Positions 232 to 62,055 of a stretch of 64,000 nt of DNA are shown one piece after another. This stretch comes from a virus. Position 1 is the first letter of the stretch. Every line of letters begins with the position of its first letter. The position numbers were made by a program, and so were the translations under genes. The notes below the pieces were generated by a model that made no database searches, was not told where the DNA came from, and worked only from the letters and a program-made list of their open reading frames with translations. The DNA is taken from the UHGV virus genome UHGV-0279745; one strand, 5' to 3'.

Positions 232-313
232 ATAGGGGCTGAACTGGCACTTCAGCCCCTACGGACACGTTTCATTCGAAACGGATTGATTAAACCATTT
301 GGGGAGACAGATC

Positions 314-457
314 ATGTCTACTAAAAAGAAAGAAAGTCTCAATGAGCTGCTCAAACGGCTTAAAGACTACACTCCATTTAGTACCTGTTATCGGAAGGTA
401 CTAAAATTTTACAGTCTGCCCCTTTATTCTGCTACTCGGGATACCGGTAGGGGGTAG
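314..457 (+). CDS. small lysine-rich hypothetical protein (47 aa)
   Basis: ATG with GGAGA about 6 nt upstream; not in ORF track (under 60 aa); lies in the long leader downstream of promoter copy 1. Confidence 0.25.
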   Translation: MSTKKKESLNELLKRLKDYTPFSTCYRKVLKFYSLPLYSATRDTGRG

Positions 458-601
458 GGGGCATTATGTATACGGATATAAATAGCGGAGGTATACGTAG
501 TATACCGACATACTCTTCCCAGAGGAACGTAGTGACTTCCTTATACCTCTTTTACAATCCATAATAATAGACTCCCCTTTATTGAGATTAGCGAGTAAAT
601 C

Positions 602-1336
602 ATGAGAGAATTATTAGACGATATCTTTACTAACACCAATTTAGAACTTTCTTCTACGGTGGTTAATGAACTAATAGGGCAATCCCAACCTGCTAAGTTA
701 GTCTCTGCTGAAACAATTAAACCCGAAGATTATCCAGACAGTGACGTTATCGACAGCATGGTTGACGAATACACGATAAGCAGTCACGCCAACCGGTTCT
801 TCTTTGTTCTTAATACCGAAACCAGCGTCATTTTATTCTATAAATTGATCAGTGACGCCGAACTTGAAGTCGTAGCGGAACATGTTCGCCTCATTGCCAG
901 CACGCCTACCGTTTCCGATGTTACGTTTATTGGAGGAAGCAGTATGCTGACGCTATACTCTTACTTCCCACTGTTTAGACATGGGGTAGGGTTAATCAAG
1001 CATGTAGAAAACCTTCCCACTGATGTAGAATTAACGTTGCTCGGCCGGGACATCAGTCTTTATCCCTTAAAAGATAACGGTAAGTTATACGGTTTACGTA
1101 TCTATGTTTCTTGGTTAGAGGGATACCGCGTTATTGAACTGATTGCATCAGGCTTAACAAAACAAATCCCAGAGGCGGAAACGATTTCTAAAGCCACTCA
1201 CCTAGTTGAGATTAATCCAGACGATCCGTTTTTACAGTATCACACAGAAAATTCCCTTCGTGGTGTCGCTGCCGTAAAAGGGTGGAGTTGTGCTGAGATT
1301 ACGAAGGGCTATCTGCTGCTAATTAAAACCGCGTAA
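602..1336 (+). CDS. hypothetical protein, tandem paralog family A member 1
   Basis: ORF track; shares N-terminal LDDIF motif with 3166 ORF and the C-terminal GW..G..LL motif of the family. Confidence 0.6.
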   Translation: MRELLDDIFTNTNLELSSTVVNELIGQSQPAKLVSAETIKPEDYPDSDVIDSMVDEYTISSHANRFFFVLNTETSVILFYKLISDAELEVVAEHVRLIASTPTVSDVTFIGGSSMLTLYSYFPLFRHGVGLIKHVENLPTDVELTLLGRDISLYPLKDNGKLYGLRIYVSWLEGYRVIELIASGLTKQIPEAETISKATHLVEINPDDPFLQYHTENSLRGVAAVKGWSCAEITKGYLLLIKTA

Positions 1337-1362
1337 GTAAAAACCTAAAAGGAGAATATATC

Positions 1363-1917
1363 ATGTATCTGACTAAACTGAAAAATGAAATTATCCAATC
1401 CCTTGAAAAAGGTGTAGGTGAACATTTCTTTAACTGTCCCTATACCGTACTGACCAATACCATTATTCAGCCAGGTGCGATGATAGTAGGGGTGAGTGTA
1501 CAAGCTGTGGAGGAAACCCCGCTGCGTCGCAACATCACGCGTAAAACGCATATCCCATTTAGAACGGGCTTTACAGATTACCTTCAGAGCTTACTGAAAG
1601 ATAGCGTTTGGAAAACAGGCAGCTTCTTCCACGATGGGAAGACTTCCACGCTGGTTTATAAAGAGAACACCAAGTATCTGGTTGATTTTCTCTTAGCGCG
1701 TCAATACGATTTCTTTCCATCCCCTTCTGGCACCACCCCTGATAATCCAGGTAAGTTATTAAACCAAGACGAAGCCGAAGCACTCTTTACAAGACTTCGG
1801 AATGAGCACTGCGATGTTGATGACTGGGAAACGTTGATCGCTGTCGCCAAAGTACATGGTTGGTATACTGTACGTAAAATCGGTCAGCAGTTGTTGTTCT
1901 TAGCTTACCCTGCTTAA
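1363..1917 (+). CDS. hypothetical protein, paralog family A member 2
   Basis: ORF track; strong RBS (ctaaaaggag); C-terminal HGWYTVRKIGQQLLFLA motif. Confidence 0.65.
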   Translation: MYLTKLKNEIIQSLEKGVGEHFFNCPYTVLTNTIIQPGAMIVGVSVQAVEETPLRRNITRKTHIPFRTGFTDYLQSLLKDSVWKTGSFFHDGKTSTLVYKENTKYLVDFLLARQYDFFPSPSGTTPDNPGKLLNQDEAEALFTRLRNEHCDVDDWETLIAVAKVHGWYTVRKIGQQLLFLAYPA

Positions 1918-1946
1918 GTAACGAAAAACCCTAAAGGAGAGTAAAA

Positions 1947-3098
1947 ATGCGAAATATTATTTCTAAGCCAGGACATGCCAAGATCCTAAAAGAACTGATG
2001 GACAGATGCTATAATCGGACTTGGTCACTACCAAGCTTAACCATCGAGTCTTCATTACAACGTGAGTTGTTTGGTTATAACTTGGGCTGTTGTGTACTTA
2101 GTGAATACAACCAGGTTATCGCGCCTGTCGATGTCTGTACTTCCGATGAAGAAATTGAAGGTTACCAGTTCACAGCTTACACAAATTGTGGACTAAATTA
2201 CCGTAAACTCGTTGTTAGGGAAATGAGTAGCAACCGGAAGATTATGTTTAAGGTCTTCCCAAGTGGTAAAGTCAGTAATTTATGTTTTCAGCTTGAGAAA
2301 GTGCCCTTTCACGGTGCAGCCATTTTAACTAAACCAGAACTCCTGTTATTAAGCGGGTTAATTGGCTTTGAAGTAAAAACCATCAAAGTTGAGCAGGAAC
2401 TTACACGAAACGATTTCGGCTCAACTTGGTACGAAAGTTTCTTCCGCTACGAAATGTTAAGTGATAAAGCTATCAAACTCACTTACCGTTCTACCGACGA
2501 CATCGTTTACCACATTTTAATTAGCGGCGAACCCCACCAGATTATTGAAGTCGGAGGAGAAAAATCCGTGCGTACCTTAAAAGATGAATTAACTGATTTT
2601 GTTAACAAAATTGATAACGTGGGTATCAGTGAATTATTGTTCCCGATTCAACATCCAGAGCTGCTTGACGAGAAATCTGAAAACGTGGTTATGGGTGTGC
2701 ATTTACTTCCTGACCATCTTGCTATCTACCGTACACTTTCTAAGAATCAACTTAAAGTGTGGTGCCTGTTAAAAGACCTTTTAACAGAGGCGGGGTGGTC
2801 GTGTAGTGTAGATGTTAACTGTGAAGGAGTTGCGTTCTTCATCACAATAGGCAATCGTAGTTTTTCTGTCGATTTACCTACTCGCAGCTATTACAATTTC
2901 TTCCCGACCGCAGAAGGACGTACTGAAAAAGAACCCGCATTACTGCTCAGTGCTGAGGAGTCCAATGCGTTAATGGCGAAACTAAAGGCGAAAGACGAGA
3001 AGCTGGATGCTTTACATCTACCTATAATCGGGAAAGACTACGGTTGGGCTGACGTGCAAAAATACGGCAGTCAGCTGTTGTTTGTTGCTGACCTTTAA
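1947..3098 (+). CDS. hypothetical protein, paralog family A member 3
   Basis: ORF track; RBS ctaaaggag; C-terminal GWADVQKYGSQLLFVA motif. Confidence 0.65.
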   Translation: MRNIISKPGHAKILKELMDRCYNRTWSLPSLTIESSLQRELFGYNLGCCVLSEYNQVIAPVDVCTSDEEIEGYQFTAYTNCGLNYRKLVVREMSSNRKIMFKVFPSGKVSNLCFQLEKVPFHGAAILTKPELLLLSGLIGFEVKTIKVEQELTRNDFGSTWYESFFRYEMLSDKAIKLTYRSTDDIVYHILISGEPHQIIEVGGEKSVRTLKDELTDFVNKIDNVGISELLFPIQHPELLDEKSENVVMGVHLLPDHLAIYRTLSKNQLKVWCLLKDLLTEAGWSCSVDVNCEGVAFFITIGNRSFSVDLPTRSYYNFFPTAEGRTEKEPALLLSAEESNALMAKLKAKDEKLDALHLPIIGKDYGWADVQKYGSQLLFVADL

Positions 3099-3123
3099 TA
3101 AGTGAAACTACACTTTCTCTAAC

Positions 3124-3150
3124 TGCCGCGCTTTAGTCGCGGCTTTTGTT
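3124..3150 (+). terminator. putative intrinsic terminator
   Basis: gccgcg-loop-cgcggc hairpin followed by ttttgtt. Confidence 0.5.
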
Positions 3151-3165
3151 AAGAAGGAAATAGAA

Positions 3166-3939
3166 ATGAAAGTCCATTTAGACGACATCTTTAAAACCGA
3201 ACCGTATATGATCGAAGGTTCGCTAACATCACTACTATTTGCCGATAGATTAGATCGTACGCTGCAATTACAATCGGTCGAATCTGCACCCGTTGATGAT
3301 GTAGAGCGTTACGAGCGCATCAATCATACGCGGGGTGAGTATCGTCGCTATAAGCCAAATTCACTAAGCATCAAGCTCTGGCAAGTGAGCACAGGTAAAG
3401 TATTAACTTATCGCGCTGTCGGTAGTTATTACATTCAACAAGCCAAAGAATGGCTAGAGAAAGTTAAAGAACTGAACTTCGATCTACTGAGCAAAAAACT
3501 GCGCGATCATAACGCCAGTTTGCCGATACGTAATTATTTCTCCACGATTGAAAATAGTCGATGCTTCGTTTCACGTGAAACCACGATATTACCTGGGGCT
3601 GATGTTCAGACGACACTAAAAGATGTGGTTGTGAAGAAAATCTTTCATGAATCTGAACACGTTGGATTTCGTATCTATTTAACGCACAAGAGACCATTTA
3701 CCGTGATTCACGTTGTTACCGCACCCGAAGGCTCAGCGGTTATTCGAGAACTTCCTGATGCTCGAGACCGTTGCCCTAATGAGCCGCTTTATTTAATGTC
3801 AGGAACAAAATCAACCGCGTTGATGTCCCGTTACAGCATGTTAGATGTTGTTGACGCTGCTATGAAACTGGGTTGGAAAGAAGTGCAGCAACATGGTAAA
3901 CAATTGCTGTTTATTGCCGATGTAAAACTTAATCAATAG
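3166..3939 (+). CDS. hypothetical protein, paralog family A member 4
   Basis: ORF track; N-terminal LDDIF and C-terminal LGWKEVQQHGKQLLFIA motifs. Confidence 0.65.
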   Translation: MKVHLDDIFKTEPYMIEGSLTSLLFADRLDRTLQLQSVESAPVDDVERYERINHTRGEYRRYKPNSLSIKLWQVSTGKVLTYRAVGSYYIQQAKEWLEKVKELNFDLLSKKLRDHNASLPIRNYFSTIENSRCFVSRETTILPGADVQTTLKDVVVKKIFHESEHVGFRIYLTHKRPFTVIHVVTAPEGSAVIRELPDARDRCPNEPLYLMSGTKSTALMSRYSMLDVVDAAMKLGWKEVQQHGKQLLFIADVKLNQ

Positions 3940-3951
3940 TGAGGTGGTACC

Positions 3952-4530
3952 GTGTACCGATTAATAGAAATGCGAAAAGACGTTTGGTTGGAAAACCTCG
4001 TCGATGGGGAGCTTGAGGGAATAGAGCTTTCCTTACCAGAAAGAGCGGACACGGTATTGGTCTTTCTGATAAAACAGGCAGCGAAGGAACCGGTAGGAAT
4101 CTTCAGCGTGGACTATAAAGACCCACGAGGGATTCATTTACGGAACATTTGCAGTGGTTTGGAAAGCTTACCGGCTAATCCGTTCTTAAACTACGCAAAA
4201 CGTAAACTCCAGCCAGGGCAACATCTCTGGGTAGTTCTAGCGCCTGATACACGCATTATACGTGACGACCTGACTGCGTTTGTCCAAGCAACGAAAGTCA
4301 GTTTGTACAATCCTAATGCGGATCGTACCGATATGCCGTTTACAATCACCTTAGAAGACGATGGAACGCAAGAGGGTATTGAGGCAATTACGGAATTAGT
4401 AAACTCTTATCCGGTAGCGTCTATTGAGTTAGAAAACCCAAACCGATTACCGTTGGGTGATTTACTCGAATGGATTGAGCTGAATACCGAGTTCCTCATT
4501 AACTCCCGGCAGTACCGGTTCGATGTATAA
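3952..4530 (+). CDS. hypothetical protein
   Basis: ORF track; GTG start with GAGGTGG RBS. Confidence 0.55.
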   Translation: MYRLIEMRKDVWLENLVDGELEGIELSLPERADTVLVFLIKQAAKEPVGIFSVDYKDPRGIHLRNICSGLESLPANPFLNYAKRKLQPGQHLWVVLAPDTRIIRDDLTAFVQATKVSLYNPNADRTDMPFTITLEDDGTQEGIEAITELVNSYPVASIELENPNRLPLGDLLEWIELNTEFLINSRQYRFDV

Positions 4531-4532
4531 CA

Positions 4533-4570
4533 TCGGTGGGGGTAAACCCCCCACCTTTTATTTTTTTGTT
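4533..4570 (+). terminator. intrinsic terminator
   Basis: ggtggggg-taaa-cccccacc hairpin followed by a long T-run. Confidence 0.7.
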
Positions 4571-4592
4571 CGTTAATATTAAAAATAATTTC

Positions 4593-4614
4593 AGATATAT
4601 ATTACCTAGGTGAG
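4593..4614 (+). promoter_or_regulatory. candidate early-type phage promoter element, copy 2 (agatatatattacctaggtgag)
   Basis: Contains TATATTAC; lies between a terminator and the next gene; followed by a gtgagag/ctctcac hairpin (4610..4631). Confidence 0.45.
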
Positions 4615-4660
4615 AGTACAAAAGCTCTCACTTAATAAAACCATTTTAGGAGTATTAAAG

Positions 4661-5032
4661 ATGAAAAACGAATTATTTAAAGACCCGTTTGTTGTATTAA
4701 TGATCGTTACTCGCGCTGCCACTAACCCAGAAAACCTGAAACGTTTACTTACTAACGAAGCATACCTTATCGAACAGCGTGACGCGCAGTTAGCCAAACC
4801 GCACGCTGAAGGCCAGGCGAAAGACCTTATCTCTATTTTCCGTAACGAAGAATGGCGTAAAAACAACGAGCTGTCCGACAACTTGACGGTTGCAATTGCA
4901 AAACTCTTGACACTGTTCAATCTCGACAAAGACATTAACCAAAGCCTTTCTACAGAAGAACGTCTGGAAATGATAAGAGGTATCGGAGATAGTTATACAC
5001 AGATTAAAGCATTCCCCAACACAGTTATTTAA
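4661..5032 (+). CDS. hypothetical early protein, dispersed paralog of the 62129 gene
   Basis: ATG at 4661 with extended RBS ttaggagtattaaag; N-terminus MKNELFKDPFVVLMI identical to the 62129 ORF; first 44 coding nt identical. Confidence 0.7.
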   Translation: MKNELFKDPFVVLMIVTRAATNPENLKRLLTNEAYLIEQRDAQLAKPHAEGQAKDLISIFRNEEWRKNNELSDNLTVAIAKLLTLFNLDKDINQSLSTEERLEMIRGIGDSYTQIKAFPNTVI

Positions 5033-5078
5033 TTTCATAATTTGTGGGAATTTCCCCATAACCCGAAGGAGCATTTCA

Positions 5079-5540
5079 ATGAAAACCTTTATCACATTCT
5101 TAATAACCATTTTAACTTTCGGCCTCAATAGCGCACACGCCGCTATCAACAGCTGGGAACAAATACAAAACCCTGGGCAGGCAGTTTACGAAATCGAGGA
5201 CACCGCCGGAAACGGACTGTCTATCAACTGTGACACAGAAACTGCGAATCGCAAATTTTACGGTCGCATGGTTTGGTATTACGGTGAACCCGTAGGTGCA
5301 ACTAACGCGGAAGATAACACGATGGATATTGTCGTAAACGGCAAAACCTATAACATCCCTACCGTGGACGGTAGTGACAAAGCAGAACACGCTTGGGTTG
5401 CTTTCGTTAAAGCTATCGGTAATGCCAAAACTTTCAGTGTGAGTATCAATGGTAACGATGCCGCTAACTTTACCGTAGAAGGCGAACGTCTGTCTGAAAC
5501 TTTCTTCCAAAACTGTGGACACACCCGTCCTAACAAATAA
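5079..5540 (+). CDS. small secreted protein (predicted signal peptide)
   Basis: ORF track; hydrophobic N-terminus ending AHA; Cys residues. Confidence 0.65.
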   Translation: MKTFITFLITILTFGLNSAHAAINSWEQIQNPGQAVYEIEDTAGNGLSINCDTETANRKFYGRMVWYYGEPVGATNAEDNTMDIVVNGKTYNIPTVDGSDKAEHAWVAFVKAIGNAKTFSVSINGNDAANFTVEGERLSETFFQNCGHTRPNK

Positions 5541-5568
5541 CTATTAGTCTTTTTTAGAGTGCGTGAAA

Positions 5569-5955
5569 ATGAATATCAGAACTATACTTTATACCATCAT
5601 TATTTTCTGTGCGGTCGGAATTACTGGCACTTATGCTTTCGGTGATTCAGATGTCCGTTATTACGAACCGGCTCCTGACTCACCGATTATCAACCCGGAT
5701 GAGACGCCTACGTTAATGCGCAGTTTCGGTAAACTACAAGTTTATCGTTTAGTGCGTGGTGAAACGTGTACGGGATTACTCATTGCTGACACCCGTGCAC
5801 AAGTCTACCAACGTCTGACGGATATCGCCTGCGAACAACCAAAAGTCATGTCAGTTAGTATCCATCCGCTATCAGTTGGTAACTATACCGCTGTGGACTT
5901 CTTTCACAACGCCGAATTAATCGGACGTGTTACCTTAAATCGCCCTGCTGAATAA
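5569..5955 (+). CDS. small exported or membrane protein
   Basis: ORF track (5563 GTG alternative start); hydrophobic N-terminal segment. Confidence 0.5.
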   Translation: MNIRTILYTIIIFCAVGITGTYAFGDSDVRYYEPAPDSPIINPDETPTLMRSFGKLQVYRLVRGETCTGLLIADTRAQVYQRLTDIACEQPKVMSVSIHPLSVGNYTAVDFFHNAELIGRVTLNRPAE

Positions 5956-5973
5956 TCTAAAGGAGTAGTTATA

Positions 5974-6459
5974 ATGAAACGTTTACACACATTGATGTTC
6001 TTTCTGGTTTTCTTGTTTATCGGTGTCACGCCAACTGTAGATGCGGCCTCCGTAGACGAATTGCTTACCTGCGATGGAAACGCTTGGGAAGGTCAGCCAA
6101 ATGCGTGCCCAAACATCAACGACTTGTACGATACCGATAAGTCGTTTAAAGCCGTTGTTGATAAAACATTAGACCCTGTGGGACTGGATGGTATGTTCGG
6201 CTCTAAAGGTTACATGGATGGCCCTGGTGGTAACATGTATCCGGTAAACATCAACAACAAAATCTGGATTGAAAGTGGCGGTTGTAAAGCTAACGCTTGT
6301 GGTTGGGAATACATCGTAACGCTATACAACCCACACACCAAGAAACTCGTCGGCTATTACTACAACATCGACCCCGGTTATCTGATTTGGTTCGGTGATA
6401 TCGGTGTTGCCGAATTCGCTTACCTGGTTAAGAAATACGTAGAACAATCTAAATACTAA
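5974..6459 (+). CDS. small secreted cysteine-containing protein
   Basis: ORF track; signal peptide ending VDA; strong RBS ctaaaggag; multiple Cys. Confidence 0.65.
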   Translation: MKRLHTLMFFLVFLFIGVTPTVDAASVDELLTCDGNAWEGQPNACPNINDLYDTDKSFKAVVDKTLDPVGLDGMFGSKGYMDGPGGNMYPVNINNKIWIESGGCKANACGWEYIVTLYNPHTKKLVGYYYNIDPGYLIWFGDIGVAEFAYLVKKYVEQSKY

Positions 6460-6470
6460 GGACTTTTATC

Positions 6471-6881
6471 ATGAAAACTATCATCAATACTCTTCTCATT
6501 GCAATGGCTGTTCTGTTCTCTGTCAACGCTACAGCAAAAACAATACAGTTGCCAGACAATATTAAGTACGTCAATAGTACCGATGATTTCTATTGTACGG
6601 AAATTGACGGGTTGTACTGCCAGGCGAAAAGCCTGTTTAAATACAAAGGTAGCAGATACGTATTCATCGTTGAGCAAGGTGGTGCCTGGTGCTACGACAG
6701 CCCAATGTCCGTACTCAACCTCGAAACGTGGAAGGCTCAGCGTCTCGAATACAACGACAAACGTCTGTGCTCTGGTAATAACAAACCATTCTTCGAAGTC
6801 GTAGATGGTGTGCCAATGGTAGGGATATTAGACACTTCGGAAAAACCTATCGTTGTAGCTATGGATAAACTTAAAATTTAA
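6471..6881 (+). CDS. small secreted cysteine-containing protein
   Basis: ORF track; signal peptide ending ATA; 5 Cys. Confidence 0.65.
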   Translation: MKTIINTLLIAMAVLFSVNATAKTIQLPDNIKYVNSTDDFYCTEIDGLYCQAKSLFKYKGSRYVFIVEQGGAWCYDSPMSVLNLETWKAQRLEYNDKRLCSGNNKPFFEVVDGVPMVGILDTSEKPIVVAMDKLKI

Positions 6882-6891
6882 GGAGTAACTC

Positions 6892-7281
6892 ATGCGTCTC
6901 GTCTGCGTTTTAGCATTCTTCTTCTCCCTGAGTGTAGCAGCATCTACTCAAGTTAACGATTTACTGCTAACCCCAAACAACAATACCGATTACCAGTACA
7001 ATCCTCCGGGGTTTGAAGTTTGTGAAGTCGGTGAAACAATCTGCCAAGAAGTCGGCGCAGACGGGCGCTATATTCTGGTAAAAGCTGATGGTGGCACAAT
7101 GTGTCCCGCAGGTTATTACTTTCTGCTCGATTCCGTCGCAAGAGAGGTTCTTCCTATCACCACGAAAACGTGCGACCCTACCGTTGTCTTAACTCTCGCT
7201 AAAAGCAAATCTCGCGACCGTTATCTGATCGTTATCGAAGAACGGGGCAAGATGGCTGGTGCTATCGAATTAGATCATTGA
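6892..7281 (+). CDS. small secreted cysteine-containing protein
   Basis: ORF track; signal peptide ending AAS; 4 Cys. Confidence 0.65.
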   Translation: MRLVCVLAFFFSLSVAASTQVNDLLLTPNNNTDYQYNPPGFEVCEVGETICQEVGADGRYILVKADGGTMCPAGYYFLLDSVAREVLPITTKTCDPTVVLTLAKSKSRDRYLIVIEERGKMAGAIELDH

Positions 7282-62036: not shown

Positions 62037-62055
62037 CCCTATTGAAAATTATCTT

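Follow-up and report, generated by a model that had tools for sequence, protein, structure and literature searches.

Near the start of the 64,000-nucleotide stretch of UHGV virus genome UHGV-0279745 analysed here (the window), four consecutive plus-strand genes, g1 to g4, form a tandem array whose products carry a shared module at their extreme C-termini, attached to N-terminal parts that differ from gene to gene and from genome to genome. An earlier note, made from the letters of the window alone, had described these open reading frames (ORFs) as a paralogous array of early genes ending in common C-terminal strings; all four were located at 602-3939 and the strings were verified. The first gene, g1 (602-1336), encodes an acidic protein of 244 amino acids (aa; isoelectric point, pI, 4.8) that is probably a divergent relative of g4 along its full length. 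It is followed by g2 (1363-1917, 184 aa, core module at ~1699-1908), which equals the C-terminal half of g3, and by g3 itself (1947-3098, 383 aa), in which a variable N-terminal part of ~260 aa is joined to an extended C-terminal module (core at ~2886-3095). The last member, g4 (3166-3939, 257 aa, core module at ~3739-3927), is basic (pI 9.0) and the best conserved of the four. Immediately downstream on the same strand lies g5 (3952-4530, 192 aa, phrog_20879), a conserved gene unrelated to g1-g4 but placed in their transcription unit, whose homologue in phage SPN3US is gp177.

The kinship of these genes is visible in direct comparison, where blastp aligned the C-termini of g2 and g3 (E=4.9e-14, 108 aa), g3 and g4 (E=1.8e-10, 65 aa) and g2 and g4 (E=1.9e-5, 64 aa). 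Profiles built from orthologues, with g5 serving as negative control, again linked g2 to g3 (97%, E 8e-11, with the entire g2 aligning to the C-terminal half of g3), g3 to g4 (97%, E 2e-10) and g2 to g4 (77%, E 2e-5), and the g5 profile was unrelated to all four (E 0.3-0.7). Within the module the paralogues are only 30-38% identical to one another, which marks them as old. Two sets of patterns, defined post hoc from sequences already seen, were run against the window in six frames: GW-x(5-9)-G-x(1-3)-LL[LFIV][ILV] occurs solely at the four C-termini, and LDDIF (residues 5-9) and [IL]P[DE]A...GW occur in g1 and g4 only, which bears out the observation in the earlier note that the first and last members share an LDDIF motif. 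The case for g1 is made through g4: hhalign paired the two profiles over 233-234 columns, their full length (E=8.5e-5 and 60%; E=2.9e-4 and 40%), and a hidden Markov model (HMM) of g1, run against 35 sequences, matched P0027, an orthologue of g4, at 2.5e-8. When the same HMM was searched against 3,784 six-frame segments, seven g4 orthologues ranked right behind the g1 orthologues and the eighth came after one noise match. The array is thus very probably a paralogous modular family, in which sequence similarity marks g2, g3 and g4 as robust paralogues and g1 as a probable, very divergent fourth.

The module itself spans ~65 aa, extended to ~110 aa in g2 and g3, and follows the consensus [IL]PDxxDR[ST]xN[ED]PxYLMSxxxV ... 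A...GWxxVxxxGxQLLF, a variable insertion separating its two helices. When 1.84 billion cluster representatives were searched exhaustively with HMMER, only 34 matched at E<=0.001, two of which are long multi-stretch proteins judged likely to be spurious; in nearly all the others the module again occupies the extreme C-terminus, in proteins of 72-423 aa, some of which consist of the module and nothing else. A word-indexed protein search yielded g2 orthologues almost exclusively. An HMM of 24 module sequences recovered g2 (9e-23), g3 (3e-21) and g4 (1e-21), and both g3 and g4 matched PHROG models (for g4, phrog_26772 at 1.7e-9 and phrog_33648 at 5.2e-7). AlphaFold2 folds the g4 module into a compact strand-helix-helix-hairpin (beta-alpha-alpha-beta-beta) with a mean predicted local distance difference test score (pLDDT) of 94 and a predicted template modelling score (pTM) of 0.80, and in the full-length g4 model (pLDDT 69.5) it is the module that forms the confident region. 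Searched with Foldseek against predicted viral structures, the g4 module found its only significant matches among uncharacterised jumbo-phage proteins, from Erwinia, Klebsiella and related phages, including those of EarlPhillipIV, phiEaH2, PhiEaH1, Wellington and Eowyn (probability 1.0, TM up to 0.87). The suggestion that the conserved C-terminus forms a common fold is supported by prediction for g4, the one member modelled, and by these predicted jumbo-phage relatives.

Comparison with characterised proteins gave a different picture. Against the PDB, the full-length g4 model found nothing below E 0.16 with Foldseek, and a profile search of PDB sequences gave a best and non-significant match to 2kzv (E 0.35). 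Searches of the family against Pfam, NCBIfam and PADLOC recovered no known domain; PADLOC produced just one chance-level match (g3 to DpdF, 0.02), and neither NCBIfam nor Pfam returned a defence or anti-defence family, no dedicated anti-defence library having been used. As the PHROG models that do match are labelled as of unknown function, the statement in the earlier note that no known domain is recognisable stands, and by these comparisons the module is a previously undescribed domain without known relatives. Two more specific ideas about its make-up were dropped. Similarity to excisionase or MerR-type winged helix-turn-helix proteins found no counterpart among Xis or MerR structures and no sequence match to a helix-turn-helix family, and internal helix-GW-hairpin repeats were not seen when the g1, g3 and g4 profiles were aligned to themselves with hhalign (no off-diagonal match, E 0.16-0.59), secondary HMM matches reaching only E ~10.

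Module-only proteins of 72-125 aa were seen on other contigs (L013 6001-6378, L015 6001-6294, L016 6001-6219). On contigs of 279 kb and 113 kb the module-only gene is immediately followed by a glutaredoxin gene, with a thymidylate-kinase gene ~4 kb away. On a 22.7-kb contig it is flanked by genes for an N6/N4 DNA methyltransferase and a Bro-N protein, within a series of small genes that has a helix-turn-helix gene where the contig ends. SPN3US-like phages may thus not be the only carriers of the domain.

The array belongs to a Seoul-like jumbo phage with a genome of ~222-227 kb, a member of the nucleus-forming group. Among the products encoded in the window are split beta-type subunits of a multisubunit RNA polymerase (RNAP), an SbcC-like protein, a UvsX-like recombinase and phiKZ/SPN3US-like virion proteins, and its RNAP genes share 73-75% DNA identity with those of Erwinia phages phiEaH2, Stratton and Asesino and of SPN3US-group phages. 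Close relatives occur as circular ~222-kb 'plasmids' in complete genomes of Enterobacter ludwigii and E. coli (L002, NZ_CP134650.1; L003, NZ_CP173450.1), in five IMG/VR contigs, and on many ~220-227-kb contigs in assemblies of Salmonella, Shigella and E. coli isolates; 'persistent' Seoul-like jumbo phages have already been reported (bioRxiv 10.1101/2024.12.31.630880), and the phage of the window fits that description. Among isolated phages in an August 2025 collection, the array has no DNA-level match save for a 60-bp element, and the phage as a whole lacks a close DNA match among isolated phages.

At the protein level, the array has a clear counterpart in SPN3US, where a single module gene, gp175 (412 aa; YP_009153469.1 / AEP84008.1), follows divergently transcribed DUF1471 and baseplate-type genes and precedes the g5 homologue, a site that matches the position of the array in the window. 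Scans with the HMMs found that SPN3US, pEa_SNUABM_29, Derbicus, Phobos and CR5 each have one module gene at this locus and that every close relative of the window phage has three, with g1 also present in all but the Enterobacter ludwigii element. Because the gene is single in SPN3US and the four other phages and threefold in the close relatives, the tandem array represents an expansion, specific to this lineage, to three or four copies. The same C-terminal module in the same genomic place is shared with gp175 (tblastn of g4 to SPN3US, 36% over 67 aa) and with PHROGs 33648, 26772, 24489 and 18480, all labelled 'unknown function'; what differs is the copy number, a single gene in SPN3US and the four other phages, coding for 322-423 aa with unrelated N-terminal parts, against a tandem set of three or four in the window phage. 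In their lack of characterisation gp175 and the window proteins are alike. The idea that g5 might be an obligatory partner of the module was rejected: the surroundings of the module-only genes, and of the module gene in each of Derbicus, Phobos and CR5, contain no detectable g5 homologue.

Across seven close relatives, identity to the window protein is 91-99% for g5 and 80-97% for g4, and falls to 49-79% for g1, 41-90% for g2 and 42-95% for g3, with allele combinations of g1-g3 that differ from genome to genome in a mosaic fashion. DNA homology breaks off where a conserved leader has its 3' edge (547-552), is regained where g2 starts to encode the module (1771-1816) and again at the beginning of the extended module of g3 (2717-2745), and in six of the seven relatives ends at 4617, just past a second promoter motif. 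The g3 alleles of two relatives (L005 and L006) are 42% and 73% identical overall to the window protein, yet their C-terminal modules are near-identical, and a Derbicus-like lineage (P0119-P0130) carries near-identical modules on unrelated N-terminal regions. Synonymous divergence (dS) between the window and its closest relative ranges ~20-fold from one gene to another. Ratios of nonsynonymous to synonymous divergence (dN/dS) were 0.31-0.39 for g1, ~0.2 for g2, 0.33-0.37 for g3, 0.10-0.18 for g4 and 0.09-0.14 for g5, and, being below 1 throughout, identify the genes as constrained coding sequences; on this measure all four members of the array are under purifying selection. It is quite likely that their diversity arises mainly through the exchange of segments as cassettes, and not through positive selection of a demonstrable kind. 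The earlier note had proposed a diversifying family, and in one sense this was right, since g1-g3 are unusually variable and mosaic when set against g5; gene-wide positive selection formed no part of what was found, and the variation came by segment exchange.

Upstream of the array lies a phiKZ-type early (virion RNAP) promoter motif, ATTTCAGATATATATTACTTAAGTGA, on the plus strand at 206-231, recognised by motif search and by its conservation in relatives. The 26-nt motif ATTTCAGATATATATTACYTARGTGA occurs exactly at 206-231 and at 4588-4613, and with three mismatches at 62051, where 0 occurrences would be expected in the window; the copy at 206-231 holds the TATATTAC core given for phiKZ and agrees with the predicted promoter of 201phi2-1. 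According to a review, conserved AT-rich motifs are the early promoters of every RNAP-encoding jumbo phage whose transcripts have been profiled. The motif is retained in relatives, stands 25-190 nt upstream of the single module reading frame in Derbicus, Phobos and CR5, and has a copy elsewhere within the locus in SPN3US. An array downstream of an early promoter, as the earlier note had it, is therefore what the motif indicates, with early timing predicted from the motif. Directly 3' of it on the same strand, at 234-261, is a stem-loop (GGGGCTGAA-loop-TTCAGCCCC) that probably marks the 5' end of the transcript and whose stem is kept in relatives through two-sided changes at three positions (GGGACTGAA/TTCAGTCCC, GGGGTTGAA/TTCAACCCC, GGAGCTGAA/TTCAGCTCC). 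The second promoter copy is also followed at once by a stem-loop (4609-4630), which suggests that early transcripts of this phage carry a conserved 5'-terminal hairpin.

Between this hairpin and g1 lie two further features. A plus-strand upstream ORF at 314-457 (47 aa from its ATG) is short, poorly conserved and of uncertain coding status; by eye it is ~25 aa long in L002, L003 and L008, it is different in L006 and deleted in L004, and in SPN3US its place is taken by an unrelated 105-aa gene, gp174. It overlaps a non-coding leader element of 128 nt (417-544), which contains a perfect 17-bp palindrome, GGTATAC-GTA-GTATACC (GGTATACGTAGTATACC), at 490-506. The leader is 98.4-100% identical in the seven relatives, its flanks being far more diverged, and is kept regardless of whether g1 or g2 is the first gene; 26 nt around the palindrome recur at the corresponding intergenic place in SPN3US, and the 3' edge of the leader is where homology to L002 and L003 breaks. 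It matched no Rfam family and no tRNA, its predicted fold is not exceptional (minimum free energy z=-1.2), there is no other copy in the window, and isolated phages yielded no blastn match. Its role might be that of an operator, of an RNA leader or of an anchor for recombination. Within the array, a consensus scan marked a terminator-like hairpin (GCCGCG-loop-CGCGGC followed by a T-run) on the plus strand at 3125-3143, between g3 and g4; it is weaker than the strong intrinsic terminator at 4535-4555, also on the plus strand, whose 8-bp stem with seven G-C pairs and subsequent T-run end the unit. From these signals, g1-g5 would form one unit of ~232-4555 (motif at 206), probably transcribed early by the injected virion RNA polymerase from its TATATTAC-type promoter.

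The terminator is followed by the second copy of the promoter motif (4588-4613, plus strand) with its own hairpin, and homology to most relatives ends just beyond, at 4617. The composite of terminator, promoter and hairpin (4535-4632) is alone in the first 8 kb in matching SPN3US-like, Erwinia and Proteus jumbo phages (83-90% over ~60 bp). Behind it stands g6 (4610-5032, 140 aa, phrog_27024), which the window has in common with a single relative, its closest (L004); the remaining six show no DNA homology across 4618-5058, and no g6 homologue was detected in them. Located right behind a promoter cassette, g6 is thus an accessory gene that may be present or absent. Further downstream, the next five ORFs, within 5079-7281 (153, 130, 161, 136 and 129 aa), all have hydrophobic, signal-peptide-like N-termini, for example MKTFITFLITILTFGLNSAHA and MKRLHTLMFFLVFLFIGVTPTVDA; the early-type unit that comes next may thus encode a group of small exported proteins.

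This arrangement resembles the PeSL cassettes and hyperplastic regions of T4-type phages (PMC2839356, PMC4122927), where, as at 4535-4613 of the window, a terminator and early promoter are better conserved than the genes around them. As at T4-type PeSLs, the window cassette sits at the edge of an insertion or replacement, here that of g6, and early accessory genes appear to be swapped in blocks. Two differences set it apart: the promoter belongs to the multisubunit virion RNAP of the phage and not to host sigma-70, and some exchange points in the window fall within genes, at the edge of the segment for a conserved domain, which means that halves of proteins are swapped as well as whole ORFs. 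Going by its break points, the 4535-4613 element would have been a site of recombination, and by its sequence features it appears to qualify as a PeSL-like mobile regulatory cassette. The anchored exchange of half-genes is a variant of a known evolutionary pattern, to which the use of a domain-coding segment as the anchor is added.

What such proteins might do can be approached from their architecture. The array would encode early proteins in two parts, a conserved C-terminal domain and an exchangeable N-terminal part. The domain could act as a shared handle for protein-protein docking or oligomerisation, perhaps with a conserved phage or host partner, and the N-terminal parts could be the source of target specificity. 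The proteins would then be early factors at the interface with the host, engaged in host takeover or counter-defence, and neither enzymes nor virion parts. A role of this kind would agree with an early-type promoter, with expansion in one lineage and with mosaic genes, and protein binding is favoured over DNA binding because the module is not basic (pI 5.1-7.9). As the best overall explanation we give this reading a probability of about 0.4; its most specific element, a docking handle serving a host-interface role, is a tentative suggestion and on balance a doubtful one.

Two well-known systems offer partial parallels. The T4 internal proteins IPI-III bear a conserved capsid-targeting sequence on otherwise highly variable proteins, and IPI* is an anti-restriction factor. 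Here too a short constant part is attached to otherwise unrelated and rapidly replaced bodies in a large virulent phage, but in the window genes the constant part is a folded C-terminal domain of 65 aa. Polymorphic toxins and effectors combine a constant delivery domain with a variable effector, and the window proteins likewise have constant and variable halves, with alleles that differ in one half only. Their polarity, however, is reversed, and no toxin domain, immunity gene or secretion signal turned up in the searches of Pfam, NCBIfam and PADLOC.

Several observations weigh against early host-interface factors built on a shared domain. The membership of g1 is the least secure part of the family: both shared-module HMMs failed to detect it with all filters off, its profile met the module profile in the last 26 columns only (E=0.0012, 20% probability), and it is tied to the others, weakly, through its full-length similarity to g4. 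A search for gene-wide positive selection found none, with dN/dS of 0.09-0.39 and nowhere above 1, and g2 in public data falls into two major allelic classes and is not endlessly diverse. The early timing is derived from a sequence motif, g5 and the module occur together in Seoulvirus-like genomes only, and the locus adjoins baseplate genes. Neither experiment nor homology ties the family to a function, and no binding partner was found.

The first alternative is that these are dispensable, fast-drifting accessory genes, whose similarity reflects recent duplication and whose variability reflects relaxed constraint and recombination. The higher dN/dS of g1 and g3 (0.31-0.39) relative to g4 and g5 (0.09-0.18) speaks for drift, as does the loss of g1 from one relative and the similar presence and absence of the neighbouring g6. 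Yet dN/dS is well below 1 in all genes, the paralogues, at 30-38% identity in the module, are old, and conservation of the module extends to phages with RNAP genes only ~73-75% identical in DNA and to module-only proteins on other large contigs. Drift as the whole explanation is, on these grounds, unlikely.

The neighbourhood of the locus lends itself to another reading, in which the proteins are accessory to the baseplate or fibres, or are assembly factors, with variable parts that track host range and a C-terminal domain that anchors them to the virion. The array directly adjoins a divergent gene annotated as baseplate assembly or structural, the SPN3US neighbours gp168, gp171 and gp173 are baseplate or fibre genes, and a conserved anchor with a variable remainder is typical of host-range proteins. 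Fibres, however, usually have a conserved N-terminal anchor and a variable C-terminal tip, the reverse of the polarity seen here, and the array shares a separate unit, headed by a TATATTAC-type promoter, with small genes that are not structural. There are also proteins of 72-130 aa that consist of the module only, one of them on the 22.7-kb contig near helix-turn-helix, DNA methyltransferase and Bro-N genes and not near structural ones. In the portions of the SPN3US literature consulted, gp175 is not mentioned as a virion or essential protein, and the main text and two supplementary files of the virion proteome paper (PMC5105663) make no mention of it, a weak negative. We consider a structural role decidedly improbable. 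Equally hard to credit is the proposal that the C-terminal domain binds nucleic acid. In that case the proteins would control transcription, translation or the fate of mRNA early on, would have sensor-like N-terminal domains and would perhaps act on the palindromic leader of their own operon; the topology of the module and the proximity of that leader are suggestive of this, but the non-basic module and the lack of fold matches are opposed to it.

The host-interface reading can also be taken a good deal further. The module would in that case be a new addressing or docking domain of nucleus-forming phages, bringing interchangeable N-terminal effectors or sensors to one conserved hub; candidates are the early infection vesicle, the shell of the phage nucleus or the import apparatus, and hub proteins of the host. 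An arms race with host defences would have moulded the array into a polymorphic set of early effectors, possibly linked to the persistence reported for Seoul-like phages. So extended a scheme is speculative and its chances are slim.

A 2026 review names Tad1 as the sole anti-defence protein described in jumbo phages and expects many more among their small uncharacterised ORFs. In this light the locus is a concrete anti-defence candidate, being probably early, duplicated in one lineage, mosaic, and equipped with a compact predicted domain that has no known relatives. The domain could be used as bait for a partner and as a search handle for further cassettes of the same kind, and since the Seoul-like group is reported to persist in isolates of Salmonella, E. 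coli and Shigella, many natural alleles for population analysis are already present in public assemblies, which hold ~300 Seoul-like genomes. Beyond this locus, the break points suggest that conserved regulatory and domain-coding segments serve chimalliviruses as anchors for the shuffling of early genes, and even of halves of those genes, in a manner reminiscent of T4-type phages and their PeSLs.

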